Origin: Pseudomonadota bacterium
GTDB lineage: Bacteria; Desulfobacterota; Desulfobacteria; Desulfobacterales; Desulfolunaceae
Direction: 5' to 3'
DNA length: 64,000 nucleotides
NCBI GenBank assembly: GCA_018818835.1
Contig: JAHIRD010000141.1
Coordinates: forward strand, 4,608-68,607
The translations under genes were made by a program, and so were the position numbers. Under the pieces are notes generated by a model that was given only the letters and a program-made list of their open reading frames with translations, made no database searches and had not been told where the DNA came from. Shown here piece after piece: positions 11,709-37,696 of the stretch. The number at the start of each line of letters is the position of its first letter. The first letter of the stretch is position 1.

Positions 11709-11732
11709 GTTTCTTGAAACATTTGATCCTAT

Positions 11733-11776: not shown

Positions 11777-11811
11777 CCACGTAAATCACTTATGAGGATT
11801 GTGCTAATTCA

Positions 11812-12642: not shown

Positions 12643-12686
12643 TTTCTTCTCCAAAGTAAAATTAAAAATTAATTTAATTTACCAGA

Positions 12687-12762: not shown

Positions 12763-13765
12763 ATTTTCTTTGGCGGTTTTGCTTGCGCACCCTTGCGCAA
12801 GACAAATTGATTTGTAAAAACGATTTACCATTAAACAGATTCGTTTAACGTTCTTAAGAATTAGCCTCCTTTCCATATAAAAAGAAATGTCCCCACATTC
12901 CAGTTAATATTCATATCCCTAATGAGTCTTTTTAAAGATCTTAAGGGACACGCGACGACCTAACTAAAGCCGCCGGAAACAACATGTATGTAAATTTTAG
13001 AAAGAGCTGATTTATGCCTACCTCGTAAACCGGTTGGCTGTGCGGCCCATGTGTTCTCGTGTGTGGGCCTTGTCTTCGCATTCAATCATCGGATGAACCA
13101 TTCAAAAATTGAAAGACCGTAACAATGTTTTATAAAACGTACGAAGATAATCCTTATGTACGAAAGTAGTAGGGTCGAATGATGATTGTATATCCGCTGC
13201 CCTTTTGCTTTGTCAATTAAAAATTTTCGATTTTCTTAAAAATTAAATTGTACGAGTATAAAAAAAAGTACTTGAAACGATTGACAATAGTCATTGTGAA
13301 CGCTGTTCATCAGTTGTGCCAAATGTACTAAATAGGTCCATTCGGTTGTACAGCTGTTAAAATATCGAAATTTCAGGCATTTGAATTATAGCCCCGAAAA
13401 ATGATTTCGCGAAATCCTGCGAAAATATGGGCTTTTACCGAACAATGTTCATGTACTGGAATGGGATTTTGAGGAAAAAATATGATTTCTATTGAGTTTT
13501 TAAGGAACTTGCGCGTTTGGTAAGGTACCTTTTTGATAAATCGGGGGTCACCATGGGCGTTTGTCAGGTGAAAGTAATTCAATTATCCGATTTTAAAGGT
13601 ATTTTAACTGAATATATGTAAAAAAGTTCTTAGCTTTATTAAGTATTTTACCCAAGGAGAGAAACATAGTTTCAATAAATGGACATAGATCTTAATGACG
13701 ATCATGATACTCAGACCCTATGTTTTTAAGGGCTCGCAGGCGTTTAATTGAAGGATGGCATGGGA

Positions 13766-13781
13766 TGGCACGTATGTTGCT
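13766..13781 (+). promoter_or_regulatory. Sigma-54 (-24/-12) promoter, orphan
   Basis: TGGCACGTATGTTGCT is an exact match to the TGGCACG-N4-TTGCW consensus. There is no plus-strand ORF of 60 aa or more downstream before 19959. Confidence 0.5.
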
Positions 13782-14354
13782 ATTTTATCCATTATTATTC
13801 GAGGGGTCGGATAATACAAAAGATCATGTCATAGGATGTGGCAAAGAAAAGCACATTGGAAATTTTAAAGGCATCATAGGTCTCTTGGGTTTAAGCCGCT
13901 GAGACCGCATTATCGGGAAAGGTTATCCTTATTGGATTCCCGTTACACACATAAAGCCTGGTATACGCGTGTTGAACGGTAATCTGGGGAATGATTGTGA
14001 CATCCTGTAATGAATGGTTCTTCATTTGGCTTAAGCAAGGGGTACCCTTACATGCCCCAACGACGCTTATCTACGCGTCGTAGATCATACTTATTTTTCG
14101 CAAGTGTTTAACCAGAAGCCTTTCCGCGACGACTTCAAGGAATTTCTGCGATTTTTTTCAGCCTATTTGGCCATTTTATTCATCAGTGGCTCAGGGTTTT
14201 CTCTGTTTTAAATTTCCAAATTATACACTATAAAAAATTAGCCATGTGGTTTTCCCAAAGAGAGTCCTATATATAAGGTGCAAAATCTTATGATTTTCTC
14301 ACAGAGGTACAAAAATTCGGAGAACAACTCAGGGACAGGCCAATAATACACTCA

Positions 14355-14659
14355 CCACCCGGTCGCATAGCTCACTGAAAAACACAGCGTGGCAAAGCCA
14401 CACCCAAAAGCCTCGTCTCTCACGGTGGCACAAAGATTACGGAGAAGTGCCAAAAGCTGATTGCGATGTAAAAAGCCCCATATACAGCGTTATCGTGTTT
14501 AGCTGGGCTTAAATATACGACCAAGTATGCCTTCACGCCCGGCTAAACACTATGCCTTGCCTATGGACCTTGTTTCATAGCCATCCATCGACTTTTTATG
14601 AGTTCATCAAAGCTTGTGAATAATAGTTTTTTCTTTGTGATCTTTGTGCCTCTGTGGGA
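14355..14659. repeat. Composite MITE-like repeat: a family-A hairpin element with a family-B element nested in its loop
   Basis: Family A arms are tctcacggtggcacaaagattac (14417-14440) and gtgatctttgtgcctctgtggga (14637-14659), which are inverted. The interior 14465-14613 matches the family-B element at 58016-58175 (cgtgtttagctggg...cccggctaaacac hairpin, then ...ccatccatcg...gagttcatcaaagc). Confidence 0.7.
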
Positions 14660-14870
14660 AAAATTTGTGCACATCCCCCAACAGTTAAAACATACTTGCG
14701 CTCAATTTCTATCCTATGGACGCACAGATTAAACCTGTTTGGCAACCTTTTTAAAAGGTTGGCCCCCGGCAGGGGACTCATTTTGCCCTTCTTCGTGTTC
14801 TTCAGCGAACCACTAAGAGTGGGTGGTAGAAAAACAGATTTTGAGAAGTATGAAGAAAAAAATCCCTTCA

Positions 14871-15926
14871 TCAAATATGATCTTTGACCACATGAAAATG
14901 AAGGGTGGATTCTGTGACGGTGCTTTTCCCCATATACATAAATACGACGAGCCAAAGTCCCTGGACTGTCAGAATAACCAGGGGGTTCCACAAAAACAAA
15001 AGCCCTTGGGCAATGTCTGGAACCATGGGGCTGTTTTGCCTGAAGATCAGGGCGATGACAAGGGCGTAGGTTCCAGCGATTATGCCCATGATCTGGTAGG
15101 CGGAAAAAGTGCCTTCTCCCCGGTAATCGGCCCTGAAGAATTCCGAAAAACTTCGCCAGGTCTGGGTGACCCCAAGGGTCAGGACCAGGGCTGTGCCTGG
15201 GTGACCTGCAAAGAACAACCCCAATCCGATCAGGGCTGAAACGGCATAGATCACCGATGTCACTGCCTGAATGGGAAGAACTTTAACACCCTCAAGCCCT
15301 GACGCATAACATGCTTTGCGGGTAGCCCCCCGGTAAATAAAATGGTGCTTTGAAAAAAAACGTTGGAGCAGGGGATGGGTTTCGGAAAGGGCTTTCCCGT
15401 AACAGCATCCAAAACTGACACAGGACAGACGGCCCAAAGATTCACCCAGGCTGTATGAAATGGCAAAGGCGGCAAGCGTCTCTACAATGGGGAACCGAAA
15501 GCCAGGCACAGGTTCAAAATGATTGAATCCACAAATCACCCAGGGAGAGATGAGAATGCCCGTGAACACACTTCCGCCGATGGTGAAGGTGTGTTTCTTT
15601 TTTTCCACGATCCGGGCGATCCATCGGGCAGAGGGCAGGAGGACGGAAAGAAGCAGGGTGATCAGACAAAGGCTTGCCATGATGGGCGTTCCCATAGATG
15701 AACTGAGAATCAAAAACAAAATCACGGCCACGCATACCCCATTGGCAGACAACAGGCCGTACCAGGTGAAATTGACACCCTGGAAAAAACTGTCTTTGAT
15801 CCGTTGTTTGGGCATGGCCGCAAAAATCTGGCGGTTTTCAGCGGTAAGGCGGGTGAAGCCCCAGTACAAATAAAGGGCTGTGAACAGGCCTAAACATAAA
15901 ACAAATAAAATCTGGTAAATCATCAT
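14871..15926 (-). CDS. lgt: Prolipoprotein diacylglyceryl transferase (Lgt) family membrane protein; possibly a paralog
   Basis: Multi-TM protein. LGRLSCVSFGCCYGK aligns with the E. coli Lgt GRLGNFINGELWG block, VLPIQAVTS with LPRHPSQLYE, and WRSFSEFFRADYRG...FSAYQIMGI with FRIIVEFFRQPD...ISMGQILSI (E. coli sequence from memory). Confidence 0.7.
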   Translation of the reverse strand: MMIYQILFVLCLGLFTALYLYWGFTRLTAENRQIFAAMPKQRIKDSFFQGVNFTWYGLLSANGVCVAVILFLILSSSMGTPIMASLCLITLLLSVLLPSARWIARIVEKKKHTFTIGGSVFTGILISPWVICGFNHFEPVPGFRFPIVETLAAFAISYSLGESLGRLSCVSFGCCYGKALSETHPLLQRFFSKHHFIYRGATRKACYASGLEGVKVLPIQAVTSVIYAVSALIGLGLFFAGHPGTALVLTLGVTQTWRSFSEFFRADYRGEGTFSAYQIMGIIAGTYALVIALIFRQNSPMVPDIAQGLLFLWNPLVILTVQGLWLVVFMYMGKSTVTESTLHFHVVKDHI

Positions 15927-15941
15927 CTTCCTTTAATAGTT

Positions 15942-16964
15942 TTAGTTAGCGTCAGGTTTAATACCTTTTCCAATATCGCAACGGACGCATAGGTCCGTTT
16001 CAACCAATGGCTGGCCAAACCCCTTGGTGAATCTGCTTGTAACATCGTGCCGGGCTACGTTTTCCAGAAGATCCGGGCTGAATGTGAAACGGTTCTTCTG
16101 GAAAAGAAGAACCACCGTGGAGCTTCCCGGTCTGAAAAGGCTTTTGGGCTGGCCTTTTCTAAGGGTTTCTCCGATGCGGATCTCTCTGGGAGAATCATAA
16201 GCAACATCGCTGTATTGTTGGACAATATCCCCGATCATCAAAGCAACGATCTCGATCATGGCAACAAGGCCGGCGCCGGTACCTCCCGGGACATCCGTAT
16301 CGATGATGGTCACCACCCGTTTGTTTTTGGAATAGGGCGTCGCCACCTCAATGACGGCTGAGGGATTGCAGGAATGGTAGACTCCCCGGACGCCATAGAA
16401 ATCCATCACCGTCCCGGTGACGGGCATATGGTTGTAATGATATTTGTCCGGTGTCAAACGGAAAATCGCGTAATGCCCCTCTTCAAAGGCCGTGATCCAG
16501 TGTTGGTTTTCTCGTCCCAAAAGGTCTTGAACATCGAAGAATTTATCTTTGATGAAAAAGGTGGCCCCGTGATCCAGTGAGCCCGGTATCATCCTTGAAT
16601 CACAGGGGGAAACCACCTGATGGGGTGAGTGATGCATGGGGCGGGCCGTCCAGTATGTAATTTTTCTTTCAAAAAGTTGGCGGACCGAACGAATCGTTTC
16701 GGGCTCAAGGGCTTCATCCATATTCAGACCCAGGTCCCGGATGATGCGTTGGATTTTCTCCGGCCGGTGATTCAAGGGAAAATCGTAGTTGAAACAGGCC
16801 AGAAGATCCGAGGCCAATGATCCGGTCAAGGATTTGAATAGAAAGGACGCATTTTCACGGATACGGGAGTAGAGCATGCGGACCATCCGGTCTCCCAAAA
16901 GTTTTTCCGTTTTGATTTCACCGCTTCGTCGTTCAATGTATTGGTGGGGGTAACACAGGTCCAT
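15942..16964 (-). CDS. psd: Phosphatidylserine decarboxylase family (pyruvoyl-dependent) protein
   Basis: FRLTPDKYHYNHMPVTGTV matches the L-x-P-x-DYHR-x-H-x-P motif. LFRPGSSTVVLLF contains the G-S-(S/T) self-cleavage site. Confidence 0.75.
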   Translation of the reverse strand: MDLCYPHQYIERRSGEIKTEKLLGDRMVRMLYSRIRENASFLFKSLTGSLASDLLACFNYDFPLNHRPEKIQRIIRDLGLNMDEALEPETIRSVRQLFERKITYWTARPMHHSPHQVVSPCDSRMIPGSLDHGATFFIKDKFFDVQDLLGRENQHWITAFEEGHYAIFRLTPDKYHYNHMPVTGTVMDFYGVRGVYHSCNPSAVIEVATPYSKNKRVVTIIDTDVPGGTGAGLVAMIEIVALMIGDIVQQYSDVAYDSPREIRIGETLRKGQPKSLFRPGSSTVVLLFQKNRFTFSPDLLENVARHDVTSRFTKGFGQPLVETDLCVRCDIGKGIKPDAN

Positions 16965-16969
16965 GGGGC

Positions 16970-19483
16970 TTATCCTTTTGTCACTGTTTTTAATGACAGG
17001 TGGCTTTTTGATTTTTCCCGGAAAGGGGCGGAATGGGTCTGGGTTGAGTCGTCTTTGGCTTTTTTGTCAAAATAAATCTGAAGAATCAAAAGCCTGGCCA
17101 TGGCAAGGATGTCTTTTTCTGAGGCCCTGTCATTTAAAATGGGGTCTTTGATCCGGTTCAGAAAATCCACCGGGCTTTCCGAGCCAAGGATTGAACAGAC
17201 AACATCCTTGAAGACAGGCTCTCGGTAAGTGACCCAGAGTTCCATTTTCTCAATGTCCTGTTTCATTTGGCCCAGGGCCTCCTGGATGTGTTTTGTCCTC
17301 AACCCGTTTCTGTAATAGTCTTCGGCCATGCTGTTGAATTCTTCGGCCGGAATTTTCATGGGGTTTTTGATGGTTTTTTTCTTTTTACGGGAGATGTGAC
17401 CCATAATTCCCTGGCTGAGCTTTGATGAAACCGACGATTCAACATGATGTGTCAGGCGATTCTCAAGATCGGCCATGGTTTTTTCAAGGCCAAGTTCACG
17501 GATCAGCTCTTTTCCATCTTCTTTGAGCATGGACAGAAGACCCATGCGATATTCCTGATTTTTAACCCGGACATATCGGGGATACCGATTGCTTTTTCTG
17601 CTTTTTTTTGTGTGGCTGAGAATGTTCGAAAGAAAACGGTTTGTGCTGTCCATGGAGACGTAGAAGGTCGGTATGCCGATGGCCGTCCCAAAAAAGATCT
17701 GTCGCCTCTCACTTTCCGTGAATGGATCATCGGGGATATCCAGGTGATCGACCTGACCCGTGAGGATGTACTGATAGCACAAGGCCGTGATCAACATCTG
17801 AAGATTGATCGCATGGGTGAGGTCTTCTCCCGGATTGTCGAACATGCTGTAATAGCGACCTTCAAATCCGGAAAAACCCATGTCCGAGTGCTTGCGCATC
17901 CGATACAGAAGGTACATGGGCATTCTCATGTCAAAAATACCCATGTCGTCCAGGTCTTTTTTAAGGCGGGTATCATTTCCCGGGCGTCCGTCCAAAGCCG
18001 GACTTTCATCGGAACTCATCAGGCAGGCAAAATAGTCGATGAGCCTGAAGTCGGGGACCACATCACCTTTAAGGCCGAATATGCGGCTGGTCAGTCGGTC
18101 CACCCATTCGGGACCGAAGGGCGTGAGGGTCCGGCCCAGGATATTTAATGAGGCCTTTTTTTTCCATCGCCGCCATATCATCCGAAGATGTGTGAAATCA
18201 AGTTCATGGGGAAGAAAGCTCAGAACTTTTTCAGGATGAAAATCCTTGAAAGAAAGCCTGTAGGGGGCCGCACTGTAGGTGTTCACAAAAAGGGGGAGAA
18301 AATGTTCGGTGATTTTGATCACCAGATCACCCAGGTATTTTTCATGCTCTGCTGTGAACCCCGAGTTTTTATTTTCAAGGAGACGGGATAGTTTTTTGCT
18401 GCCCAGGCTCACATGGGTTCCGTTATTGGCAAGACTGATGTTGGACATGTTGGGCAAAACCACCAGATTCCGGGTGATAATGCCCGCATTTTTCAGTTTG
18501 GATACCGCATTCATCTGGCTTCGGGAAAGGACACGGTGGCAGAGTCCCATGTATTGTTTTTTTTCCTCGCCTTTATCCCAGCCCGAAAGGCAGGGGCTCA
18601 TGAATAATTCCCGGTAGAACGAATCCGGGATGATGTCATTGATCATTTTCTGACGTACGGGCGGGGTGGCAGCCGAATACGTGAAAACGGTTTGCCCGCT
18701 TTGGTTGAGGCCGAATTTTTTGTTGGCATACTGGGTGAGAATCTGTGTGAGGAGAAACCGTTTCACGGCCTCTCCTGATGCAGCTTCCCCGATGCTTGAT
18801 CCTTTGCTGTGCTGGGCCGTGTAAAAGGAAAAAATTTCAGGGGAGGAGTTATCGTTTAAAAAATGATGCATCAGGCTCTCTCCGGTCACTTTGATCACGC
18901 TGTGGGTGTCCGGCTCAGAGCCGATGATGTCGGCCAGTGACAGTTTCAGAAGATAGCTGACCGGGATGCGGAGCAGGCTCATGTCATCGTCTTTGATGAA
19001 AAAAGTGTGTGCATCACTGCGGCGGGGGGAGTCGGGTTTGGATTTATCGCTCAGAAGATCCTGGTTGAAAACAAGTTTTGCATAAGAGCTTAAACAGGAC
19101 ATATCCAGGCGAACCCAGCTGTTTTCCCAGATCTGGCTGTGATTATTTTCGATAAATTGCCGGAGTCTCTCTTGAAGTGATCTGTCATTGTCACCTGACT
19201 GGGCCCGTTTGATGACGTTTCTGTAATAGTTGGAGTTCCTGATCATCCGGGGCAGATCCACCCGGTCACCGGAACCCATGACAACAGTCTGGAATTCATT
19301 TTCAAGTCCTGCTGTTGTGTCGTTTGATGAAAAGGGCAGGGATTTAACAAGATTTTCCGGTGAACTGAAATCAATGCCCAACAAGTCGCAGAGTTGGGAT
19401 AAAAGGGAATTTGAGGTATCATGGGGTGTTTGAATTTTTATTTGAGTGTTAATTAGCACATGAATCCTTTTCTGAATAGACAC
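16970..19483 (-). CDS. Large (837 aa) cytoplasmic protein of unknown function; first gene of the psd/lgt-like operon
   Basis: Long uninterrupted ORF, 5 nt from the downstream psd-like start. No signal peptide or TM segment, and no motif I can assign. Confidence 0.6.
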   Translation of the reverse strand: MSIQKRIHVLINTQIKIQTPHDTSNSLLSQLCDLLGIDFSSPENLVKSLPFSSNDTTAGLENEFQTVVMGSGDRVDLPRMIRNSNYYRNVIKRAQSGDNDRSLQERLRQFIENNHSQIWENSWVRLDMSCLSSYAKLVFNQDLLSDKSKPDSPRRSDAHTFFIKDDDMSLLRIPVSYLLKLSLADIIGSEPDTHSVIKVTGESLMHHFLNDNSSPEIFSFYTAQHSKGSSIGEAASGEAVKRFLLTQILTQYANKKFGLNQSGQTVFTYSAATPPVRQKMINDIIPDSFYRELFMSPCLSGWDKGEEKKQYMGLCHRVLSRSQMNAVSKLKNAGIITRNLVVLPNMSNISLANNGTHVSLGSKKLSRLLENKNSGFTAEHEKYLGDLVIKITEHFLPLFVNTYSAAPYRLSFKDFHPEKVLSFLPHELDFTHLRMIWRRWKKKASLNILGRTLTPFGPEWVDRLTSRIFGLKGDVVPDFRLIDYFACLMSSDESPALDGRPGNDTRLKKDLDDMGIFDMRMPMYLLYRMRKHSDMGFSGFEGRYYSMFDNPGEDLTHAINLQMLITALCYQYILTGQVDHLDIPDDPFTESERRQIFFGTAIGIPTFYVSMDSTNRFLSNILSHTKKSRKSNRYPRYVRVKNQEYRMGLLSMLKEDGKELIRELGLEKTMADLENRLTHHVESSVSSKLSQGIMGHISRKKKKTIKNPMKIPAEEFNSMAEDYYRNGLRTKHIQEALGQMKQDIEKMELWVTYREPVFKDVVCSILGSESPVDFLNRIKDPILNDRASEKDILAMARLLILQIYFDKKAKDDSTQTHSAPFREKSKSHLSLKTVTKG

Positions 19484-19929
19484 TGTTTAGAGTTTTTAAC
19501 CGCTGCCTTAATTCGCTCAGGGCATCATGACTATGCCTTTGAATTGTTTGGATATAATGAGTGTTATGATATGGTTGTGTTAAGTCGTATTAGGGATGTG
19601 AAAATGATGGTTGTCATTTAAGGGTACATAAAGCCTACAAGATGACACCCATTGAAAAAAAATTGCGACGGGGTTCCATTCATTGATCCTCATAAAGAAT
19701 GTGTCGGATCTGCCTTAATCACTGAAATTAAAAACAATGTATACAATTGGTAACGGTGTGCGTTTAACATTCGGATAAATAAAATTGGTCGATTGGTGAA
19801 AGAAGCTTGACAGATTCCGTGATGTTAATTATTTCAAATAATATTCAGACTATACTTGAAATAATCATGCTCAGAAATGTATCGATGATCATCGTGTATT
19901 AATTTGAATCGAGCCCCTGGTAAGATGTC

Positions 19930-19944: not shown

Positions 19945-19997
19945 CCTGACAACGCAAGATGGTAACAATTAAATTCAATTTAGTGGTGGAGTTGAAT

Positions 19998-22900
19998 ATG
20001 AAAAAGCATTTATTGATATGGATAACGGCATTTTGTATTGGCCTTATGTTGACTGCATGTGGAACAATGACGGAAAATACGGATGAAGAGGTTGATGAGT
20101 TCCAGAGTAATGGAACCCTGGATCCGGAAATCTACGCAAACTTCAAACTCCTTGAAGTATTTGACGGAAGGGGAGCCCTGGAGGAAATCTGGGACAGCAT
20201 TGATGCCAAGCAAACCAACCCCCGCCTGGAATGCACCGTGGACAAGTATCCCGATGATTTTGTGACCTTCTCCAATGTGGCTGCTGGGATTCTTCGTGCC
20301 GACAGCCAACCTGTTGCCGGCATGTTGTCATCGGAAACGGCGAGTATTATCGGGCGCATTCAGGATGAAAGCCCGGCTTTTATGGACAGCCCTCCGGATG
20401 TCGGAGCCTTTTACACCAAGGGCACGGATGTTTATGCAGATGACTTTTATAGTTTTCTGGACAAACTCTGGGAAGGGGATCAGAATCCGGGTGATCAGGC
20501 CATGGCGGCCATTGCCAGCAAGGTGGTGAGCCGGATTCTGGCTAAAAAGACCGCGGCGGATATTCTTGCCGACATGCAGGAACTGGTTGATGATATCCTG
20601 GATGCCGATTTTGACAGGGATTTCAATGATCTGGCCTCTCTTCTCGGCAAGCTGCTTATCCAGGCAGACTATCCGCTCTGGGTGGATGCTGAAGGACATC
20701 CTGTGAGCAGGGATGCCATTGATCCAACACTGGATACCAACCTGGGCGTGGGAAATGCCGTTGAAGGCATGAACACCTTTGTAAACTGGTTCAATAAATT
20801 AATGGCCAATGCCCAGTCACGGGAACTTCTCTACGGTGTGATCCGTGAGTCTGTGAAAATGTTCGATCCTGATCCCGACTCCCCGAACAGCGAAAAAGTA
20901 AAAGCACTGCTTCGGAATCTGGAAGACCATTTTACAAAAGGCGGATCGGTTTACGAGTCCAACCCCCTTTACAAGAGTGCGCCGGATGATCCCACTTACA
21001 CCGATACGGAACTCGGGCAAACTGTCCGTGAATTCATGCCTTACCTGGCCCAGCTTCTGGCCCGGTCGGACCGGCCCATTTCCCTGGTCAAACATGATGA
21101 GGGTGAGGAGCCTGTGTATCTCTTGAGGGAGATGGTCCATGCCTTGAAGAGCGTCGGCTATGATCCGGATGCCCTGAACATGGAAGATTCCCTGACGATG
21201 ATGATGCAATACGACCTTCTTGGGCGTGATAGGACTGACAAGGATTCCGGAGCTTTCCCGGCATCATTCCTTGAAAGTATGATGTTTCTAACCTGTGCCA
21301 CAACAAATTTCGGATTTGCTGACGGTGGGCACACAGGGGAAACCACCCAGGTTACGAATCCCACCACCCAGCACGGCCACGGAGCATATCTGGAGGCTTT
21401 AACGCTCAACGATTCACTGATCAGCATGACCACGAACAAGACCATGGGGCTTCTCGGGATTTACGATATTTCATTCATGGCAAATGACAAGGAGTACATG
21501 TCCCGGAGTCTGGTGCCGTTCACCACGGATAACCGGAGTGACTATCAATTTGATTTTAATCAGGACTACGCTATTTTAAAGGCCCTTCCCACGAATTGTT
21601 CCGGAGATCTGGGTACACCGGACGGGGGGAATCCCAACGGTGTGAGTCCTGGGAAAAATATGTACACGCCCTATAATCCCACAGGCATTGGCGAAACCCA
21701 GCTGGCGGCATGGACGGTGAACTGGGTGGTCCGAAGTTGCTTCGGGGGAGAAGGACCTTATTACTATGCCGACCCGAATGCGGAAACCGTTACGGTGAAC
21801 GGAAAAGAATATTCTAAATTTTTGCGTCCCGACGGCCGTGTTTATGCCCTTGTCAATATGGCCACCGATCCCTGGGAATATATTTATCCCACAGACGGAG
21901 ACAGGGATGCCGAAGATATGGAAACTGCGGCTCTTGCCGATTATAACGGCCAACGCCAGCGTTTGAACCGGTTTAAATCAACCTGGCATTCGGATTATTA
22001 CATGTACCGGAGGAATAATCTGATCCGGACGGTGGACAACAGCAGCGGAAATTTTACAACCGTGGCATTGAGAGACGGAGACGCGGCACAAAGGCTTACC
22101 TATCATGAACTGATTCCCGAAGATGACCGGACCCATGTGCGAGCCTGCGCAAGTCCTGAAGAAGCATTTTTCAGAAACTATCAGTGGGTTTACATGGAAA
22201 AGAAAATGGTCTTGATCATTCCCCAGAGTTTGAGCCTCATGGGGCTTGGCTATGGCCATGTGTTCATGGTCCTGGAAGCCAATGGCTGGTCTGGACTTGC
22301 AAATATGAGGATTTTAGAAGAAAACCATGTGTGGGCCAAACAAAAAACCGATGGAATCTCGGATATCCCGGGTGATTACCGGGTTGAGTTGAAAGCCGAC
22401 ATGACAGCCATTACATCCGTTGCCGTAAACACAGGCTCTGTTTACAATGGAACATTGGGCAGGGGACATTCCACGCCGGCCATTGTTGGAAAAAATCTTC
22501 CGGCACTCTATCGGCTGGCCTTTCCTATCAGTCCTGAGATGGACCGGGGCAATGGTGTGATCGATGTTGAACTGGGATCCCGGGAATTTGAGGTGGGGGA
22601 TGAGATATGGCAGCGACGAAATGCCGTTGCACCGGCCTTTGTCTCATTGCTCTACGCCATTGATAAACACCGGGTACTCTATCCGGATTTTGACCCGTCC
22701 TCCCTGCAAAGCGGCATTCATGGTAACTTGAACAACCTGGTTCCCCTGATAAAGCCTTTGATGTTTTATGCAAAAAACGGTGAGGGGAACATTCCGCCAT
22801 ATGATGTCTGGAAAGTTCGCGTTCAGTCCGCACCCAACAGTGAAGATTGGGCTGGAGAACCCTATCTGAGACCCAGCATAGGCTTTTCGGGCAACCAGAG

Positions 22901-23999
22901 GTGGGATGGAACCGATGATGAATGGACCTATTACCAGCCTGCTGTGATGAAAAACTTTATCAATGTCTTGATTGACAGTGATATCATGGCATCGGTGACC
23001 CAGGGAAAACGCATGGACGGGATTCTGCCTGTCATGGCGGAAAACAGGGCTGTGACCAATCTTTTTAAAATTTTGATGAGCGATATCAACGATACCAATG
23101 AGCTGTACAGTGCTTTGGAGCAGATCACCGGGGCCGTAAAATACACCGAAGGCCAGTTGACAGCAATCAACCGCCCGATGGATTCAGCCAAGAAACTTTC
23201 CTTCCCCGACTGGATGTTCGCCCAGGGAACGGGTGCCGACGAATTCGGTTTTTATACGGAGTTTACAGGTGTGCGCCCCGAGGATATCATTCTTGACATC
23301 GGTCTGGACCGGCTTGTGGGCCATAATTCTTTTGATGATGGTGTGGAACATGAGGGCTATGGCCTTGCCTACTATGTGGATGACCAGGAAGCATTAAGCT
23401 GGGCTGATTTTGACAAGGATGTGGATGCCATGGAGGATTTACTGCATCCTGACAGTGAATACAGCATCGTGGAGTCCTTCATCGATATGCAGGATGCCAT
23501 CTTTGCAAGGGATTATCAGTATTCACAGGATCAGGTGGCAGGTCTCTTGTATACCCTGGGAAAGGTCTTTACCCGTTTTGATCATGACCAGAGTCGGTGG
23601 GTGGTCCAAGGGGAAGCCGGTTTTAATGATCTATACTCCATTTTAAAGCAGAGGGTCCCGGTTATCCACGATATGGTCAAGGACGAGACCGGAGCCAATT
23701 ATTGGTCCTTTATGAAAGTGAACAAGGACATGCTTGCCCAGATAAACGCGTGCGAATCCTCCAATGGAATGATGCCCTACCTTCTGAGTGCCATGAGCAG
23801 CGACGATGGGGCAGAAAAGATCATGACCGATTTCCACACCTTTTTGATGGATGACATCGTGTCCAAACCCGCCCCATTGTGGACCACTCTGGCTGATCTT
23901 CTGGCAGACATGGCCCAGGCCGTGGATAACTCCAATGAAGGGGAGCTGGTTGAAAAGGTTTTCGAGTCCTATGGGTTCCAGCGCAACGGGGATTATTGA
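19998..23999 (+). CDS. Giant lipoprotein (1333 aa), unknown function; paralog 1
   Basis: ATG at 19998 lies 7 nt after GGAG. MKKHLLIWITAFCIGLMLTAC carries a lipobox (LTAC). Acidic, no recognisable domain. Collinear with ORF 24664..28740 along its whole length; both end ...YGFQRNGDY. Confidence 0.85.
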   Translation: MKKHLLIWITAFCIGLMLTACGTMTENTDEEVDEFQSNGTLDPEIYANFKLLEVFDGRGALEEIWDSIDAKQTNPRLECTVDKYPDDFVTFSNVAAGILRADSQPVAGMLSSETASIIGRIQDESPAFMDSPPDVGAFYTKGTDVYADDFYSFLDKLWEGDQNPGDQAMAAIASKVVSRILAKKTAADILADMQELVDDILDADFDRDFNDLASLLGKLLIQADYPLWVDAEGHPVSRDAIDPTLDTNLGVGNAVEGMNTFVNWFNKLMANAQSRELLYGVIRESVKMFDPDPDSPNSEKVKALLRNLEDHFTKGGSVYESNPLYKSAPDDPTYTDTELGQTVREFMPYLAQLLARSDRPISLVKHDEGEEPVYLLREMVHALKSVGYDPDALNMEDSLTMMMQYDLLGRDRTDKDSGAFPASFLESMMFLTCATTNFGFADGGHTGETTQVTNPTTQHGHGAYLEALTLNDSLISMTTNKTMGLLGIYDISFMANDKEYMSRSLVPFTTDNRSDYQFDFNQDYAILKALPTNCSGDLGTPDGGNPNGVSPGKNMYTPYNPTGIGETQLAAWTVNWVVRSCFGGEGPYYYADPNAETVTVNGKEYSKFLRPDGRVYALVNMATDPWEYIYPTDGDRDAEDMETAALADYNGQRQRLNRFKSTWHSDYYMYRRNNLIRTVDNSSGNFTTVALRDGDAAQRLTYHELIPEDDRTHVRACASPEEAFFRNYQWVYMEKKMVLIIPQSLSLMGLGYGHVFMVLEANGWSGLANMRILEENHVWAKQKTDGISDIPGDYRVELKADMTAITSVAVNTGSVYNGTLGRGHSTPAIVGKNLPALYRLAFPISPEMDRGNGVIDVELGSREFEVGDEIWQRRNAVAPAFVSLLYAIDKHRVLYPDFDPSSLQSGIHGNLNNLVPLIKPLMFYAKNGEGNIPPYDVWKVRVQSAPNSEDWAGEPYLRPSIGFSGNQRWDGTDDEWTYYQPAVMKNFINVLIDSDIMASVTQGKRMDGILPVMAENRAVTNLFKILMSDINDTNELYSALEQITGAVKYTEGQLTAINRPMDSAKKLSFPDWMFAQGTGADEFGFYTEFTGVRPEDIILDIGLDRLVGHNSFDDGVEHEGYGLAYYVDDQEALSWADFDKDVDAMEDLLHPDSEYSIVESFIDMQDAIFARDYQYSQDQVAGLLYTLGKVFTRFDHDQSRWVVQGEAGFNDLYSILKQRVPVIHDMVKDETGANYWSFMKVNKDMLAQINACESSNGMMPYLLSAMSSDDGAEKIMTDFHTFLMDDIVSKPAPLWTTLADLLADMAQAVDNSNEGELVEKVFESYGFQRNGDY

Positions 24000-24057
24000 T
24001 GGCGTCGTAAAAAAGAAATTGTGATGGGCAAGCGAATCCTGCCCAATATTTATATCG

Positions 24058-24089
24058 AAAGGGCGGGTAATAACCCGCCCTTTGTTTTT
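24058..24089 (+). terminator. Rho-independent terminator of paralog 1
   Basis: AAAGGGCGGG-taataa-CCCGCCCTTT followed by GTTTTT. Confidence 0.65.
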
Positions 24090-24142
24090 GAAGTACTTCG
24101 CGTTGTGTAGCCGCAACCAAAAAAATAGATCTCTCAAAAAGA

Positions 24143-24270
24143 CACAGCGTGGCAAAGCCACAACCAAAAAGCCTCGTCTCTCACAGAGGCACAGAGATCA
24201 CGGAGAAGAGCTAAAAGCTTGGTAATGAAAGTTTTTCTTTGTGATCTTTGTGCCTCTGTGAGAAAAATTC
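24143..24270. repeat. Family-A MITE-like hairpin repeat, simple form
   Basis: cacagcgtggcaaagccacaaccaaaaagcctcg is followed by inverted arms tctcacagaggcacagagatcac (24179-24201) and gtgatctttgtgcctctgtgaga (24241-24263). Related copies lie at 14355-14659, 33160-33250 and 62635-62735. Confidence 0.7.
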
Positions 24271-24663
24271 TTCCTGTTGTCTGTGAAAGGGACGTACATG
24301 TTATCCACGGTCCCCATGGCCCCAAAATGCTGTCAGATATCCAAATTGTTTTTTTGATGGTAAACCCATGTCATGCCTTTCTTAGTTGTTGAAATCAATG
24401 AACAATGTACACCCAAGATAACGTTGTGAGTTTTGCACGTGTAAAATAAAGTGGGGGGCGTTGTTGAAAGATTCTTGACAGTCGCTTTAATGCCATTTAT
24501 TTCAATATAATAGTTAGATTGTATTGGGTGGGGGCCTTCTTGATTTTTTAGATGATCTCTGTTGTTTTTGCTTGCAAAGTACCTGCGTATGAAGTCTGGC
24601 GCCCCGGATGTCCCGAAATATTAAATGGTAACGTAAGATTCATTGACGAGCTGGAGTTTGAGA

Positions 24664-27600
24664 ATGAAAAAACGTTTATTCGTATGGGTAATGGCTATGG
24701 GGCTTGGCTTATTTTTAAGCGCCTGTGGAATGATGAGTGATGATTCAACAGACAATGGTGACGCATTTCAGAAAAATCAGACACAGAATCCTGATGATCC
24801 CTATCCGGAATTTAAGCTTCTTGAGATATTCGATGGTCGTGGCGCTCTTGAGGAAATTTGGGACAGCATTGATGCCAAGAAAACCAACCCGCCTTTGGAA
24901 TGTACGGTGGATCGTTACACCGATGAGTTTGTGACCTTTTCCAATGTAACGGCCGGAATTCTCCGTGCTGATAGCCAGCCCGCAGCCCATCTTTTATCCG
25001 TAGAAACAGCGAGTATTCTTGGGCTCATACGAAATGAGGACCCGTCTTTTATAGAAAGCCCCCCGGATATCGGGGCCTTTTACAGCAAGAGTTCTGATGT
25101 TTACGCCGATGATTTTTACGCCTTTCTGGACAAACTCTGGGAAGGGGATCATAACCCGGGAGACCAGGCCATAGCAGCTATTGCAGGCAAGGTTGTGAAC
25201 CGGATTCTGGCAAAAAAAGATGCCGGAGAAATCCTTGCAGACATGCAGGACATGATCGATGATATTCTGGATGATAAGTTTGACCGGGATTTCAATGATT
25301 TGGCTTCACTTCTGGGTAAGCTCCTGCTCCAGGCAGATTATCCCCTCTGGATAGATACTGACGGGAATCCGGTGGGCCGGGATTTAATTGATCCTTCTTT
25401 GGATACCAATCTGGGAGTGGGTAACGCCGTTGAAGGCATGAACACCTTTGTGAACTGGCTTAACAAAATGATGTCAAACGTCCAGTCACGGGAAATGCTC
25501 TATGGTGTGATCCGGGAATCCGTAAAAATGTTCGATCCCGATCCCGACTCTTTGAACAGTGAAAAAGTCAAAGTTCTGCTGCAAAATATCGAAGACCATT
25601 TTACCAAAGGCGGTTTGGTTTACGAGGCCAACCCCCTTTACAAAAGTCTGCCTGCTGACCCCACATACACCGATTCCGAACTGGGGCAGACCGTCCGTGA
25701 ATTCATGCCCTACCTGGCCCAACTCCTGGCCCGGTCAGACCGGCCCATTTCCCTGATCAAAAATGATCAGGACGAAGAACCGGTTTATCTTCTCAGGGAG
25801 CTTGTGAATTCCTTGAAAAGTATTGGATATGATCCGGATACCCTGAGCATGGAAGACTCTCTGACCATGATGATGCAACACGACCTTCTGGGGCGGGACC
25901 GGACCCAGGCTGATTCCGGTGCCTTCCCGGCATCAATGGCCGAAAGCCTGGTCTTTCTCACCTGCGCCACCACCCATTTCGGGTTTGAAGATGGGGGGAA
26001 TACGGGAGAAACGACTGCAGCTGTGAATCCCATTACTCAGCACGGTCATGGGGATTATACCGAGGCTATGAGCCTGAACGATTCATTGATCAGCATGACC
26101 ACCACGAAGACCGCGGGCCTTTTGGGTCTTTATGATATCTCTCTTTTGGATGGGGATGACGAGTATCTGTCCCGAAGCAGTGTTCCATTTACCACAGCCA
26201 CCCGGAGCAACTACAAGTACGATGTTGACCAGGATTACCCGATTCTTGGTGCCTTGCCCGGGACCTGCGCCGGGGATTTCGGAACGCCGGATGGTGGAAA
26301 TCAAGGCGGGGCGATTATCCCAAAAAATCAATACAAACCTTACAACCCCACCGGCCTCGGGGAAACCCAACTGGCGGCCTGGACCGTTAACTGGGCCGTT
26401 AGAAGCTGTTTCGGCGGAGAAGGCCCCTATTATTACGAGAATCCCAATGCAGACATTGTGACGGTAGACGGGAAAGACTTTTACGCGTATCTGCGTCCCG
26501 ATGGAAGGGTCTACGCCCTGGTCAACAAGGACAACGATGTCTGGGAATACATTTATCCTACGGATGAGAGAGATGCGGAAGATCCGGAAACATCTGTTCT
26601 TGGTGATTACAACAACCTGAGGCAGCGTTTCAATCGATATAAATCCACCTGGCATTCGGATTATTACATGTACCGTCGAAGCAATCAGATCCGTACGGTG
26701 GACAACAGCAGCGGCAATTTGGAAACCCGTGCACTGAATGACGGTGATTCTGCACGGTCCCTGACCTATAATGAATTGATCCCCGAGGACGATGAAACGC
26801 ATATGAGGGCCTGTTCCAGTCCTGAAGAGGCTTTTTTCAGGAATTATCAATGGGTGTACATGGAGAAAAAAATGGTGCTGGTTATCCCCCAGAGTCTGTC
26901 TGTGAATGTCTTGGGCCTGGGCTTGGGGTATGGCTCCGTGTTTATGGTTATGGAGGCCCATGGATGGTCCGGGCTGGCAAACTTGCGAATTTTTAATGGC
27001 AATCATGTCTGGGCAAAAAAAGGAACGAACGGGACTTCGGATATCCCCGGTGATTATCGGGTGGAGTTGATCGCCGATATGGTATTTCCAGCCTCATTGG
27101 CTGTGACGACCAATACGGTATATAATTCGACCCTGGGCCGGGGTAATGCCAATCCGGCCATCATCGGCAAGAACCTGCCGGCGCTGTACCGGTTGGCCTT
27201 CCCCCTCAGCCCGGGAATGGACCGGGGTAACGGCATTGTGGATGTGGAGCTGGGTTCCCGTGATTTCCAAGTGGATGATGCCATTTGGCAGGACCGAAGC
27301 GCTGTCGCGCCAGCCTTTGTTTCTTTGCTCCAGGCCATTGAAAAAAACCGGGTCAATTATTCGGATTATGATCGTAACTCACTGAAGAACGGAATTCTCG
27401 GAAATGTGAATAATTTGGCTCCCCTGATGAAGCCACTGATTTATTACAGTAAAAACACAGACGGAACCTTCCCCAAAGAAACCTGGAAAGTTCGAGTGCA
27501 GACGGCACCCAGTAGCGAAGATTGGTTTGGTGAGCCCTATTTGCAACCCAGCGTCGGTTTTGACACAGAAGAAGCACAGAGGTGGGATGGGACAGATCAC

Positions 27601-28740
27601 GAGTGGCAGCATTACCAGCCTGCGGTGATGAAAGATTTGATCAATGTCTTGATTGACAGTGATATCACCGCACCGGTGGCTGATGGAAAGAGAATGGACG
27701 GGATACTTCCGGTGTTGGCTGAAAACCATACGGTGACCAACCTTCTCAAGGTGCTGATGAGTGATACCAACGATAGCAATGATCTGTATAGTGCTCTGGA
27801 GCAGATTGTGGGAGCCGTTAAATACACTGAAGGGCAGATGACGAAAATCAATCGGGCAGCGGACGCCACAAAGAAAATTCCATTTCCTGACTGGATGTTC
27901 GCCCAGGGAACAGGTGCCGACGAATTTGGTTTTTATACGGATTATTCCGATGTGCGTGATGAGGATATCATTCTTGACATCGGTCTGGACCGGCTGATAG
28001 GGCATAACAGCTTTGAGGATGGCACCTTCCATGAGGGCTATGGCTTGGCCAACTACGTGGATGAACAGGAAAATCTCACCCCGGTTGCCTGGGCTGATTT
28101 TGACAAGGATGTGGACACCCTGGAAGATCTTCTCTACCCTGGCCCGGTAACCTATGATGGAGTGCCTTACGTTGAAAATCCCTATTGCATCGTAGAGTCA
28201 ATTATAGATATGCAGGATGCTATTTTTGCAAGGGATTCTCTGTATTCCCAAGATCAGGTTGCAGGTCTCTTGTACACGCTCGGCAAGATGTTTACCCGCT
28301 ATGACAGCGAACTGGGCCAATGGGTGGTTCAAGGAGACGCTGGATTCGCAGACCTATACACTATTCTGAAGGTCAGGGTTCCGGCCATTCATGATCTGGT
28401 CAAGGACGATACCGGAGCCAATTATTGGGCCTTTATGGTTGTGAACGGGGATATGCTTGTGAACAAGGATATGCTTGCCCTGGAAAATCCCTGCGGGATC
28501 TCCAACGGTATGATACCCTATCTTCTGGAAGCCATGAGCAGTGATGACGGGGCTGAAAACATCATGAGAGATGCTCACACCTTTTTGATGGATGATCTCG
28601 TCTCTGAACCTGCTCCTTTGTGGTCCACCTTGGCCGATCTATTGTCGGATATGGCAACGGCCACGAAGGAGGCCAAGGAAGGTAATCTGGTTGAAAAGGT
28701 ATTCGAAAACTACGGGTTCCAACGTAACGGGGATTATTGA
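24664..28740 (+). CDS. Giant lipoprotein (1358 aa), unknown function; paralog 2
   Basis: ATG at 24664 lies 7 nt after GGAG. MKKRLFVWVMAMGLGLFLSAC carries a lipobox (LSAC). Collinear with paralog 1; by eye well over half of the residues are identical. Confidence 0.85.
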   Translation: MKKRLFVWVMAMGLGLFLSACGMMSDDSTDNGDAFQKNQTQNPDDPYPEFKLLEIFDGRGALEEIWDSIDAKKTNPPLECTVDRYTDEFVTFSNVTAGILRADSQPAAHLLSVETASILGLIRNEDPSFIESPPDIGAFYSKSSDVYADDFYAFLDKLWEGDHNPGDQAIAAIAGKVVNRILAKKDAGEILADMQDMIDDILDDKFDRDFNDLASLLGKLLLQADYPLWIDTDGNPVGRDLIDPSLDTNLGVGNAVEGMNTFVNWLNKMMSNVQSREMLYGVIRESVKMFDPDPDSLNSEKVKVLLQNIEDHFTKGGLVYEANPLYKSLPADPTYTDSELGQTVREFMPYLAQLLARSDRPISLIKNDQDEEPVYLLRELVNSLKSIGYDPDTLSMEDSLTMMMQHDLLGRDRTQADSGAFPASMAESLVFLTCATTHFGFEDGGNTGETTAAVNPITQHGHGDYTEAMSLNDSLISMTTTKTAGLLGLYDISLLDGDDEYLSRSSVPFTTATRSNYKYDVDQDYPILGALPGTCAGDFGTPDGGNQGGAIIPKNQYKPYNPTGLGETQLAAWTVNWAVRSCFGGEGPYYYENPNADIVTVDGKDFYAYLRPDGRVYALVNKDNDVWEYIYPTDERDAEDPETSVLGDYNNLRQRFNRYKSTWHSDYYMYRRSNQIRTVDNSSGNLETRALNDGDSARSLTYNELIPEDDETHMRACSSPEEAFFRNYQWVYMEKKMVLVIPQSLSVNVLGLGLGYGSVFMVMEAHGWSGLANLRIFNGNHVWAKKGTNGTSDIPGDYRVELIADMVFPASLAVTTNTVYNSTLGRGNANPAIIGKNLPALYRLAFPLSPGMDRGNGIVDVELGSRDFQVDDAIWQDRSAVAPAFVSLLQAIEKNRVNYSDYDRNSLKNGILGNVNNLAPLMKPLIYYSKNTDGTFPKETWKVRVQTAPSSEDWFGEPYLQPSVGFDTEEAQRWDGTDHEWQHYQPAVMKDLINVLIDSDITAPVADGKRMDGILPVLAENHTVTNLLKVLMSDTNDSNDLYSALEQIVGAVKYTEGQMTKINRAADATKKIPFPDWMFAQGTGADEFGFYTDYSDVRDEDIILDIGLDRLIGHNSFEDGTFHEGYGLANYVDEQENLTPVAWADFDKDVDTLEDLLYPGPVTYDGVPYVENPYCIVESIIDMQDAIFARDSLYSQDQVAGLLYTLGKMFTRYDSELGQWVVQGDAGFADLYTILKVRVPAIHDLVKDDTGANYWAFMVVNGDMLVNKDMLALENPCGISNGMIPYLLEAMSSDDGAENIMRDAHTFLMDDLVSEPAPLWSTLADLLSDMATATKEAKEGNLVEKVFENYGFQRNGDY

Positions 28741-28771
28741 TCCCGGCAATTCCATGACATGATCTCTTGAT

Positions 28772-28804
28772 AAGGGCGGGTCCTTGACCCGTCCTTATTT
28801 TTTC
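28772..28804 (+). terminator. Rho-independent terminator of paralog 2
   Basis: AAGGGCGGGT-ccttg-ACCCGTCCTT followed by ATTTTTT. Confidence 0.6.
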
Positions 28805-29039
28805 TTAAACACTGGAAGATAATAGGACATATAAGTCCCATGGGTCCCATAGGTCCCATAAGACTTTTATGTCCTTTTTTTTAGAAAACCTGTGTTTTCC
28901 AGGGCGGAGTCCCCGGCTTTTCTTTTCAGGTTTGTTTGATCAAGGGATTGATCAAACAAATCACGATGTGATACATTTAATTCACGTATTTTTTATTCTG
29001 TGTCATGGCAATTCCCAGTTTAATTCACGAGGCCACTGT

Positions 29040-30470
29040 ATGTTTAGGCTATTGATGACATGGCGAACCATTCTTGACATTGTGCTCATCGCCGGAGCGC
29101 TTTTCTTTTTGTACAGGACTCTGATCCGCCTGGGAACCTGGAAGATCGTGTCCGGGATTCTAATTGCGGCCATTGTGTTTATCCTTTCAAGTTTTATGGA
29201 TTTGAAAGGCATTGAATGGATTTACCAAAATCTCAGCCATGTTGCCGTCATCAGCCTGGTGGTGATTTTTCAGCCAGAACTCCGAAAAATCTTGGAGAAA
29301 ACTGCCACCATGAGGCGGAACAAAGGCCTGGCCTATGATGAAGAATTTTCCAAGCTCATTGCCGGGAGTATTTGGGAAATGGCATCCAAGCGGATCGGGG
29401 CGATTATTGTCATCCCCGGCAATGAACCGGTGACACCCTGGTTGACCGGTGGCCTTCCCATCGACGCCATCCCAAGCCATTCATTGATTTTGAGTATCTT
29501 TGACCCCAACTCTCCTGGCCATGACGGCGCTTTGATTGTCAATCAAGGAAAGCTTTCCTCTTTTGGTGTCCGCCTGCCGATTTCAAGAAGCGGAAAACTT
29601 TCGGAGGATTTCGGCACTCGACATCAGGCTGCCATGGGTTTGAGTGAACGGTGCGATGCCCTGGTCATTGTCGCTTCGGAGGAGCGTGGGGTTGTCTCGG
29701 TGTTCTTTAACGGTGGAATCAGTACCATGGCCGGTGAACAGATGATTTTCGATGCCATTTGTTCTCACTGCAATGACGACGGAACCTCCCATCTGGATAT
29801 TCAGCCTGTGCATATGGGGCGGAAAATCATCAGGGATGGCGTGGGTTCCCTTCTGGTCGCCCTGATTTTCTGGTTGACGATGATTTATTCCCAAAGTGAA
29901 ATCTTGGAAAAAATTATTTCAGTGCCCATCGAATACACTGCCACGGCCCAGGACGTGGTCATGATCGGAGAAAAACCCAAGGAGATAAGGGCCCATCTTA
30001 CGGGTTCCAAGTCCGACCTGGACGCCTTGAACCCCGCCTCCCTGAGTGTCAAGCTCGACCTATCCAAATCCGAGGAGGGCAAGCAGACATTTCCCATCAA
30101 CGAAGACAATATCCAGCTGCCCAAAGGACTCCGGCTCATCGACGTGGAACCGTCCTCGGTTGATATCACCATGGCCAAGCTCATCATGAAAGAGGTTGGT
30201 ATCAACCCCCAGCTCGTGGGCAAACTGCCCGATGGGTTTGAACTGGTTTCGGTCAAAACCGTGCCGGAAAAAATAGCCGTGTCCCTGCCATCGGCAGAAA
30301 ACGGTCAGACAAGCCAACATGTGACCACCACACCGGTCTACCTCAGCACCATCCGGGAAACCACCACCTTGTTCTGCAAAATCGTGGCCCCGCCCACGGT
30401 GCAACTTCGTGAAAAACAATGGCCGGATGTGTCGGTGACCCTCACCGTCAAGGAGGTCAAACCGCGATAA
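29040..30470 (+). CDS. cdaA: Diadenylate cyclase CdaA fused to C-terminal YbbR (CdaR-like) domains
   Basis: The preferred start is ATG 29040 (MFRLLMTWRTILDIVLIAGALFFLYRTL). Three N-terminal TM segments, IFQPELRKILE, and DAC-domain motifs GHDGALIV and GTRHQAAMGLSE. A further TM follows, then YbbR-like repeats (ISVPIEYTA..., LSVKLDLS..., VEPSSVDITMAK). Confidence 0.8.
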   Translation: MFRLLMTWRTILDIVLIAGALFFLYRTLIRLGTWKIVSGILIAAIVFILSSFMDLKGIEWIYQNLSHVAVISLVVIFQPELRKILEKTATMRRNKGLAYDEEFSKLIAGSIWEMASKRIGAIIVIPGNEPVTPWLTGGLPIDAIPSHSLILSIFDPNSPGHDGALIVNQGKLSSFGVRLPISRSGKLSEDFGTRHQAAMGLSERCDALVIVASEERGVVSVFFNGGISTMAGEQMIFDAICSHCNDDGTSHLDIQPVHMGRKIIRDGVGSLLVALIFWLTMIYSQSEILEKIISVPIEYTATAQDVVMIGEKPKEIRAHLTGSKSDLDALNPASLSVKLDLSKSEEGKQTFPINEDNIQLPKGLRLIDVEPSSVDITMAKLIMKEVGINPQLVGKLPDGFELVSVKTVPEKIAVSLPSAENGQTSQHVTTTPVYLSTIRETTTLFCKIVAPPTVQLREKQWPDVSVTLTVKEVKPR

Positions 30471-37684: not shown

Positions 37685-37696
37685 AGTTTTGTCCTT

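Follow-up and report, generated by a model that had tools for sequence, protein, structure and literature searches.

The window analysed here, a stretch of 64,000 nucleotides (nt) of contig JAHIRD010000141.1 (positions 4,608 to 68,607 of the forward strand) from a Desulfolunaceae metagenome-assembled genome (MAG; assembly GCA_018818835.1), carries a tandem pair of genes for giant acidic proteins predicted to be lipoproteins, paralog 1 (locus tag KKD44_20285) and paralog 2 (KKD44_20290). This pair is neither an artefact nor an ordinary annotated gene: its products belong to a lipoprotein family that is rare but real, that is new to Pfam, NCBIfam, PDB and the literature searched, and that has a FadL-type barrel as its sole neighbour conserved across phyla, as established by all-against-all clustering of neighbouring open reading frames (ORFs). 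As a tentative reading, held with somewhat less than even confidence, we propose that the family supplies an envelope accessory lipoprotein to an uptake route of the FadL/AupA type for very hydrophobic substrates, which would make it analogous, not homologous, to AupB; compounds such as alkanes, alkenes, long-chain fatty acids or lipids would be candidate substrates. The proposal is made because of barrel adjacency, the similarity of the barrels to AupA, the precedent of the AupAB design, hydrocarbon-degrading hosts, lipid-related neighbours and purifying selection. It is built on gene context and analogy, from which we infer the interaction, the membrane side, the substrate and the capture or transfer step.

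Paralog 1 (19998..23999, plus strand) encodes a protein of 1333 residues with a mature mass of 147 kDa and an isoelectric point (pI) of 4.4, and paralog 2 (24664..28740, plus strand) one of 1358 residues (mature 149 kDa, pI 4.3). The ORF list contains long plus-strand frames at 19959..23999 and 24643..28740, within which the likely starts are the ATG codons at 19998 and 24664, preceded by the Shine-Dalgarno (SD) sequences GGTGGAG and GCTGGAG, respectively, with a GGAG-to-ATG spacing of 7-8 nt; family homologues start at the same MKK as both paralogs. The initial annotation had described the two genes as adjacent, collinear plus-strand paralogs with long shared strings, classical lipoprotein signals, an Asp/Glu-rich and Cys-poor composition, an own terminator and upstream region for each copy, and small private insertions in paralog 2, and this description holds in each of these respects. 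BLASTP aligned the proteins end to end with 991/1360 identities (73%), 84% positives and 2% gaps, the longest identical run being 26 residues, and the strings ADYPLW, GVGNAVEGMNTFVNW, YLAQLLARSDRPISL, NYQWVYMEKKMVL, DGILPV(M/L)AEN and the terminal YGFQRNGDY were all located at matching positions in both. The N-termini, MKKHLLIWITAFCIGLMLTAC and MKKRLFVWVMAMGLGLFLSAC, comprise a signal peptide and a lipobox of the pattern [LVI][ASTVI][GAS]C, the lipobox Cys being residue 21 in either case (signal peptide and LMLTAC of paralog 1 at 19998-20060, LFLSAC of paralog 2 at 24709-24726, both on the plus strand); judging from these motifs, both proteins are predicted to be lipidated and membrane-anchored. 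Asp and Glu together account for 15.4 and 15.7% of residues in paralogs 1 and 2, Lys and Arg for 8.0 and 7.8%, and each protein has 8 Cys. The insertions private to paralog 2 are PGPVTYDGVPYVENPY (28138-28185, plus strand) and DMLVNKDMLA (28450-28479, plus strand), both absent from paralog 1.

Each gene is followed by its own strong hairpin resembling an intrinsic terminator on the plus strand, at 24058-24083 for paralog 1 (11 pairs, 7 of them GC; AAAGGGCGGGTAATAACCCGCCCTTT followed by a T run) and at 28769-28799 for paralog 2 (14 pairs, 7 of them GC). Alignment of the upstream regions showed partly conserved blocks, several of them exact, spread over ~300 nt. Ahead of paralog 1 these blocks span 19733..19860 (plus strand), with AACAATGTA at 19733 and TGAAAGAAGCTTGACAG...ATTTCAAATAATA from ~19796, and match those ahead of paralog 2 at 24401..24530 (plus strand), with AACAATGTA at 24401 and TGAAAGATTCTTGACAG...ATTTCAATATAATA from ~24464. 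Both regions contain TGAAAGAnnCTTGACAG...ATTTATTTCAA ~190 nt 5' of the start (at 19806 and 24474), and TTGACA lies inside the common block at this distance from each gene. The common blocks are promoter-like and may act as promoters.

By the Nei-Gojobori method, nonsynonymous divergence (dN) between the paralogs was 0.17 and synonymous divergence (dS) ~1.4, near saturation, over 1331 aligned codons (dN/dS 0.12); the ratio was 0.18 or lower in every computable segment of the alignment, dS being saturated in one segment. The comparison of dN and dS, which had been suggested together with the initial annotation, therefore indicates that purifying selection keeps both copies and that the duplication is old. 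In a neighbour-joining tree, paralogs 1 and 2 are sisters and the next branch is P0003, a single-copy orthologue on the related contig L008, the flanks of which match those of the window (a Fil-like cluster upstream, CdaA and MntP downstream); the duplication is therefore lineage-specific. A third, older paralog with 60% identity, KKD44_02935, is encoded elsewhere in the same MAG (locus L062). Long antisense ORFs occur inside both genes in the ORF list, as might be expected if one or both copies were without function, being decaying duplicates or mis-called ORFs. Against this stand frames that are intact across more than 4 kb each, a dN/dS of 0.12 at near-saturated dS, an SD sequence, a terminator and conserved upstream blocks for each copy, full-length homologues in three phyla and a confident structure model, so that the reading is already effectively refuted and retains hardly any probability.

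Neither the sequences nor the predicted structure could be connected with a known family. Scans of both paralogs against Pfam and NCBIfam gave nothing at E<0.1, the best matches falling in signal-peptide or unrelated regions; 34 family members scanned singly shared no recurring Pfam family even at E<=1, and six distant relatives had no Pfam domain. The family profile matched PDB chain sequences at noise level only (best E 0.54, tryptophan synthase), and hhalign found no internal repeats among five segments of the protein. An AlphaFold2 (AF2) model of residues 134-1333, based on 21 sequences, reached a mean predicted local distance difference test score (pLDDT) of 82.4 and a predicted template modelling score (pTM) of 0.84; its N-terminal part is predicted to be helical, the middle to be mixed with a beta-rich section, and the C-terminal part to be helical again. 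A separate model of the core (residues 560-1075, 34 sequences) had a pLDDT of 76 and a pTM of 0.76. Foldseek searches with the larger model (1200 residues) gave no match in PDB (best E 2.1) or BFVD (best E 1.2), and the 516-residue core model gave none in PDB (best E 0.49, template modelling score <0.1). SusD, TPR and CBM were not matched by sequence or fold, and no SusC or BamG gene is adjacent. Within the libraries searched (PDB and BFVD), the model thus points to a fold without known relative. The earlier statement that no domain, repeat or fold is recognisable stands after the Pfam, NCBIfam, PDB-sequence, Foldseek and hhalign segment searches, no clear match to a characterised family, which would have refuted it, having turned up.

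The two proteins had also been called orphans, and this part of the initial annotation has to be given up. A word-indexed search of 5.8 billion proteins returned only ~21 clusters, all labelled 'hypothetical', and an exhaustive HMMER search of 1.84 billion representatives with a trimmed profile recovered 245 representatives at E<=1e-3, 211 at E<=1e-10 and 159 at E<=1e-30, from Desulfobacterales, Spirochaetota and one Myxococcota MAG. Family members are mostly 1300-1700 residues long; a distant subfamily of ~1100-1200 residues, to which hypothetical proteins from Leptospira fluminis and L. fletcheri belong, has mainly the central core in common with the others. A scan of one genome per species yielded 52 loci, hosted by Desulfobacterales, Desulfobacteraceae and Desulfolunaceae (including the chromosome of Desulfoluna limicola), by many Spirochaetota and Leptospirales MAGs (24-31% identity) and by one MAG of Myxococcota. 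Named members are encoded by Desulfosudis oleivorans Hxd3 (WP_012175359) and Desulfatiferula olefinivorans, both of them anaerobic alkane/alkene degraders. No homologue of the lipoproteins was found in the plasmid collection, and literature searches on FadL-plus-lipoprotein systems in strain Hxd3 or in Leptospira returned nothing specific. The family thus amounts to a database gap of ~250 representative clusters, 1100-1700 residues long, with a confident model and with neither a Pfam entry nor a PDB neighbour, and its interest lies in the new fold, in the link to hydrophobic substrates in anaerobes and Leptospirales, and in its cultured hosts. Two Desulfolunaceae members (P0016 and P0018, locus L005) and the one from D. 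limicola (L022) are ~1530-1570 residues long; P0016 and P0018 have a ~200-residue insertion in mid-protein, past the GEGPYYY region, that is absent from other members.

Of 21 family members, at least 90% keep the lipobox Cys, and 19 have a lipobox-like motif at the N-terminus, the remaining two sequences being truncated; in the family the lipobox is followed by a tether, which is short and acidic, and by an FQxN motif, which is conserved. Depending on the sequence set, 57-71 positions are invariant down to 25% identity, many of them polar or charged, and residues 400-800 hold 42 of the 71. Conserved motifs comprise HGHG (459-462), GEGPYYY (584-590), RAC..EEA..RN.QW...EKK (715-736) and IPGDYR (790-795), and the invariant polar or charged residues include H461 (within HGHG), N471, D472, R503, D637, R655, R658, D666, R715, E722, E734, K736, E760, S788, D793 and R795. 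Such residues occur in the 400-800 region at a density seen more typically in active sites than in passive binders, and the core is retained in the distant ~1150-residue subfamily (L. fluminis, L. fletcheri). Both points would suit an extracytoplasmic enzyme with a new fold, such as a hydrolase that has lipids, waxes or another polymer as its substrate and the products of which may or may not pass through the neighbouring barrel. No known catalytic motif or fold was found, however, and the invariant charged residues may equally be structural or interfacial; we regard the enzyme as an improbable explanation.

Barrel adjacency was counted at the 52 loci for which 1.6 kb or more of sequence was available downstream; three of these loci had been fetched twice. 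At 31 of the 52 (28 of 49 when the double-fetched loci are left out), a barrel gene follows on the same strand within 1 kb. In D. oleivorans, a Thermodesulfobacteriota MAG and a Desulfolunaceae MAG, a Toluene_X/FadL barrel of 447-456 residues begins 86-183 nt after the lipoprotein gene, and in D. oleivorans no terminator-like site was found between the two genes; the neighbours at L001, L003 and L005 match Toluene_X (PF03349). Partner proteins at other loci (463-512 residues) have no Pfam match and are 36-55% identical to the Toluene_X-matching barrels. Altogether, the partner barrels form one dedicated subfamily of 447-512 residues with 36-84% mutual identity and a conserved N-terminus, FGDTFGFSxxGMxLGNAMTAxxDDWSxxYYNxAGL, a segment that we take to resemble the FadL hatch. 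Their best NCBIfam match is the alkane uptake protein AupA (E 1e-27 to 2e-10), with almost the whole D. oleivorans barrel aligned to the AupA model, and their best PDB sequence match is TodX (E 1e-3). The conserved neighbour therewith belongs to the FadL/TodX channels (Toluene_X), whereas the window paralogs themselves are not barrels. Secondary matches to BamG, PorV/PorQ and FilD models are weak (BamG E 1e-5 to 5e-3). Lipid-related genes are scattered among the neighbours, with a TetR regulator at one locus, an AraC regulator plus desaturase at another, acyl-CoA dehydrogenase, CoA-transferase and fatty-acid desaturase genes at L062, and an alpha/beta-hydrolase-like gene at 14 Spirochaete loci.

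Tandem copies of the lipoprotein gene recur as well: no fewer than 10 further loci carry two or three of them, and a single barrel gene can be preceded by two or three lipoprotein genes. Some tandems are lineage-specific, as in the window, and others are ancient, position-conserved pairs, in which siblings are 31-33% identical as against 45-55% between positional orthologues; in one ancient pair the second gene begins at the base where the first ends. By the phyletic and neighbourhood survey proposed at the outset, a conserved FadL-type barrel neighbour and recurrent tandems characterize the family at large, but the pair in the window is followed by CdaA and not by an AupA-type barrel.

The closest known design is that of AupA and AupB from Marinobacter hydrocarbonoclasticus (Mounier et al. 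2018, PMC5989066): the two proteins share an operon and are co-immunoprecipitated, and their mutants have the same phenotypes. Both are needed for the uptake of interfacial and micellar alkanes, and some Alcanivorax strains have as many as six copies of the operon. According to the literature as summarised in that paper, canonical FadL works without an accessory protein (PMC5989066). On plasmid pHP-187 of Marinobacter adhaerens, only 13 nt separate the gene for a close homologue of AupA (719 bits) from the next one, which encodes a 1086-residue protein with a lipobox (LLLTAC), 14.1% Asp plus Glu and 6.3% Lys plus Arg. Its lipobox, size and composition imply that the presumptive AupB, identified as such by gene position, is also a giant acidic lipoprotein. 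The likeness to the present family consists in a FadL-family barrel gene beside one for a very large envelope protein whose fold is unknown, in the occurrence of several non-identical copies per genome, in hydrocarbon-degrading hosts and in AupA being the best-scoring model for the family's barrels. The gene order differs, being barrel then AupB in Marinobacter and lipoprotein then barrel here, as do the hosts (marine aerobic Gammaproteobacteria as opposed to anaerobic Desulfobacterales and Spirochaetota); moreover, the family's barrels are distant from AupA, and the window pair has no adjacent barrel. Homology to AupB was considered and rejected, since hhalign of the family alignment (A1) against the presumptive AupB, used as a single-sequence template, gave a probability of 0.2%.

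On the uptake reading, the lipoprotein would first be exported by Sec, lipidated at Cys21 and anchored in a membrane through the short acidic tether, as its N-terminal sequence suggests. By analogy and from the gene neighbourhood, the folded 145-kDa body, with its conserved polar residues in the 400-800 region, would then dock on or beside the barrel, where it may capture, process or pass on the hydrophobic substrate, as proposed for AupB with AupA. Repeated tandem duplication would diversify the lipoprotein and possibly the substrate range.

A FadL-type barrel can also act as a dock for a lipoprotein: in BamG-BamH of the Bacteroidota beta-barrel assembly machinery (BAM), a FadL-family barrel of 14 strands holds a surface lipoprotein via its lipidated N-terminal tail (PMC12611786). 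The main rival to the uptake reading, drawn by analogy with this precedent, is that the family consists of structural or adhesive surface lipoproteins, the barrel being a docking platform or export device and not a nutrient channel; wrapped by the lipidated N-terminal tail, the barrel would keep the 145-kDa body on the surface. The weak BamG, PorV/PorQ and FilD matches of the partner barrels, the short tether and FQxN motif conserved directly after the lipobox, the two or three lipoprotein genes ahead of a single barrel gene, and a strong negative charge that suits an exposed surface layer all agree with such an arrangement. BamH, however, is much smaller, with a fold of the carbohydrate-binding type, BamG is essential and part of BAM, and the family's barrels match BamG weakly while its lipoprotein resembles no PDB chain. 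Further, AupA and not BamG or PorV is by far the best match of the barrels, which have the conserved N-terminal segment presumed to be hatch-like; many copies, including all three of this MAG, lack an adjacent barrel, and adhesin-type repeats or an Ig-like domain were not found. Such a surface role is accordingly judged unlikely, although somewhat less so than the enzyme considered above. SusC/SusD offers another barrel-lipoprotein pairing, in which the genes for an outer-membrane barrel and its cognate lipoprotein lie side by side and the lipoprotein is often duplicated and diversified. SusC is a TonB-dependent barrel of 22 strands, SusD has a TPR-like fold, and the pair is not known outside Bacteroidota; the barrel family is a different one here, and the family's lipoprotein has no SusD or TPR match.

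Several observations weigh against the proposed role in uptake. The protein is hydrophilic and very acidic (grand average of hydropathy -0.38), and no lipid-binding fold was recognised in the fold searches. The partner barrels score 40-97 bits against the AupA model, far from its equivalog cut-off of 840, the giant lipoprotein shows no homology to the presumptive AupB by hhalign, and literature searches with the D. oleivorans accessions found no mention of the D. oleivorans protein. A barrel is missing at 19 of the 52 eligible loci, and one Spirochaete clade keeps a conserved lipoprotein pair in a housekeeping neighbourhood (usp-rpoN-hpf-hprK). By tblastn, the whole 64-kb window contains no member of the partner-barrel subfamily; an adjacent barrel is also missing from the loci of the closest relatives (L008 and L009) and from that of the third paralog in the same MAG (L062), which is flanked by genes for acyl-CoA dehydrogenases, CoA-transferases, a fatty-acid desaturase and corrinoid methyltransferases. 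Confidence in the uptake reading is therefore lower for the window pair than for the family, and the missing barrel implies either that the partner is encoded elsewhere or that this clade is barrel-independent.

Little has been established about the passage of alkanes, alkenes and long-chain fatty acids through the outer membrane and periplasm in anaerobic degraders, and even in aerobes AupB is the only accessory factor described, its mechanism not being known. At the system level, the family resembles this known but poorly understood design of a FadL-type barrel with a giant lipoprotein. If the uptake reading is correct, giant lipoproteins of two unrelated families would be associated with AupA-like barrels, which would suggest that FadL-type channels commonly depend on a large accessory protein when substrates are of the lowest solubility. 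A more far-reaching version, which is possible but more doubtful than the uptake role as such, combines the new fold with a two-component envelope machine, made up of the giant lipoprotein and an AupA-like FadL barrel, that would import extremely insoluble substrates in anaerobic hydrocarbon and fatty-acid degraders and in Leptospirales; the 400-800 core would then be a novel binding or catalytic site and the partnerless tandems specialised derivatives. The presence of the gene pair in the cultured strains D. oleivorans Hxd3 and D. limicola makes the link to hydrophobic uptake testable.

Among the Spirochaetota, the clade without a barrel is represented by the MAG loci L037, L039, L042, L043 and L054, which have an ancient lipoprotein pair (31-33% identical) and no FadL-like barrel. 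The two genes abut or overlap by a few bases where both copies are seen, and the flanks, where read, are pyrG/mfd and usp-rpoN-hpf-hprK. Such a stable pair would fit a heterodimer. The conserved neighbours of this clade were considered as functional partners and set aside; they are housekeeping genes (rpoN, hpf, hprK, pyrG, mfd), and their conservation therefore reflects synteny rather than function. At 14 Spirochaete loci, including L025 (15746-16837), L030, L031, L044 and L056, a protein of ~355 residues with an N-terminal transmembrane segment and weak similarity to Peptidase_S9 (alpha/beta-hydrolase) is encoded near the lipoprotein-barrel pair.

In the window, the gene 3' of paralog 2 (28869-30470, plus strand) encodes a protein of 533 residues that joins a CdaA N-terminal transmembrane domain, a DAC diadenylate cyclase domain and YbbR, and the orthologue in L008 has the same single-chain CdaA-DAC-YbbR architecture. 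Upstream of paralog 1, a divergent operon on the minus strand (14871-19483) encodes an 837-residue protein without Pfam or NCBIfam match, a phosphatidylserine-decarboxylase-like (PSD-like) protein of 340 residues and a protein of 351 residues distantly similar to prolipoprotein diacylglyceryl transferase (LGT; 34 bits); these genes were discarded as candidate partners, being absent from the orthologous locus L008. Further upstream lies a Fil-type cluster for a putative pilus or amyloid-like structure (4516-12654, minus strand), which is also found upstream of the single-copy orthologue in L008. Its components, all on the minus strand, are three tandem DUF6160/FilA-like genes (10042-12654), genes for a C39 peptidase, FilB-like and FapD-like (9148-9912), and for a Phenol_MetA_deg-type outer-membrane protein (7994-9139), a FilD-like FadL-family barrel of 654 residues (6082-8046) and a PD40 beta-propeller protein (4516-6021). 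The FilD-like gene, although the only FadL-family gene in the window, was rejected as a partner of the paralogs, because it belongs to the Fil-type cluster and is unrelated to the partner subfamily. Five c-di-GMP-I riboswitch aptamers scored above the Rfam gathering threshold on the minus strand, three in tandem at 4009-4365 and two single ones, at 11639-11718 and 12684-12772, one upstream of each of two DUF6160 (FilA-like) genes; given these aptamers beside Fil-like genes, c-di-GMP riboswitches appear to control the cluster.

The ~2.2 kb that separate the Fil-like cluster from the LGT-like gene (12655-14870) contain no ORF longer than 131 residues; one riboswitch and a repeat element lie in this segment, and the G+C content of the window is at its lowest (0.405) in the 12-14 kb bin. 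The repeat element is a palindromic sequence, TTTGTGATCTTTGTGCCTCTGTGAGA with its complement, that forms a hairpin with 34-nt arms in the inter-paralog spacer (24179-24263), where a 47-nt imperfect direct repeat adjoins it (24100-24193), and that recurs as an inverted pair at 14418-14659. With 3 matches in the window against 0 expected by chance, it resembles a repetitive extragenic palindromic (REP) element or a miniature inverted-repeat transposable element (MITE). Downstream, a Cus-type heavy-metal efflux operon of the resistance-nodulation-division (RND) type (34208-40437, minus strand) encodes an outer-membrane factor (437 residues), a membrane-fusion protein (476 residues) with two heavy-metal-binding domains and an AcrB/CusA-type pump (1158 residues).

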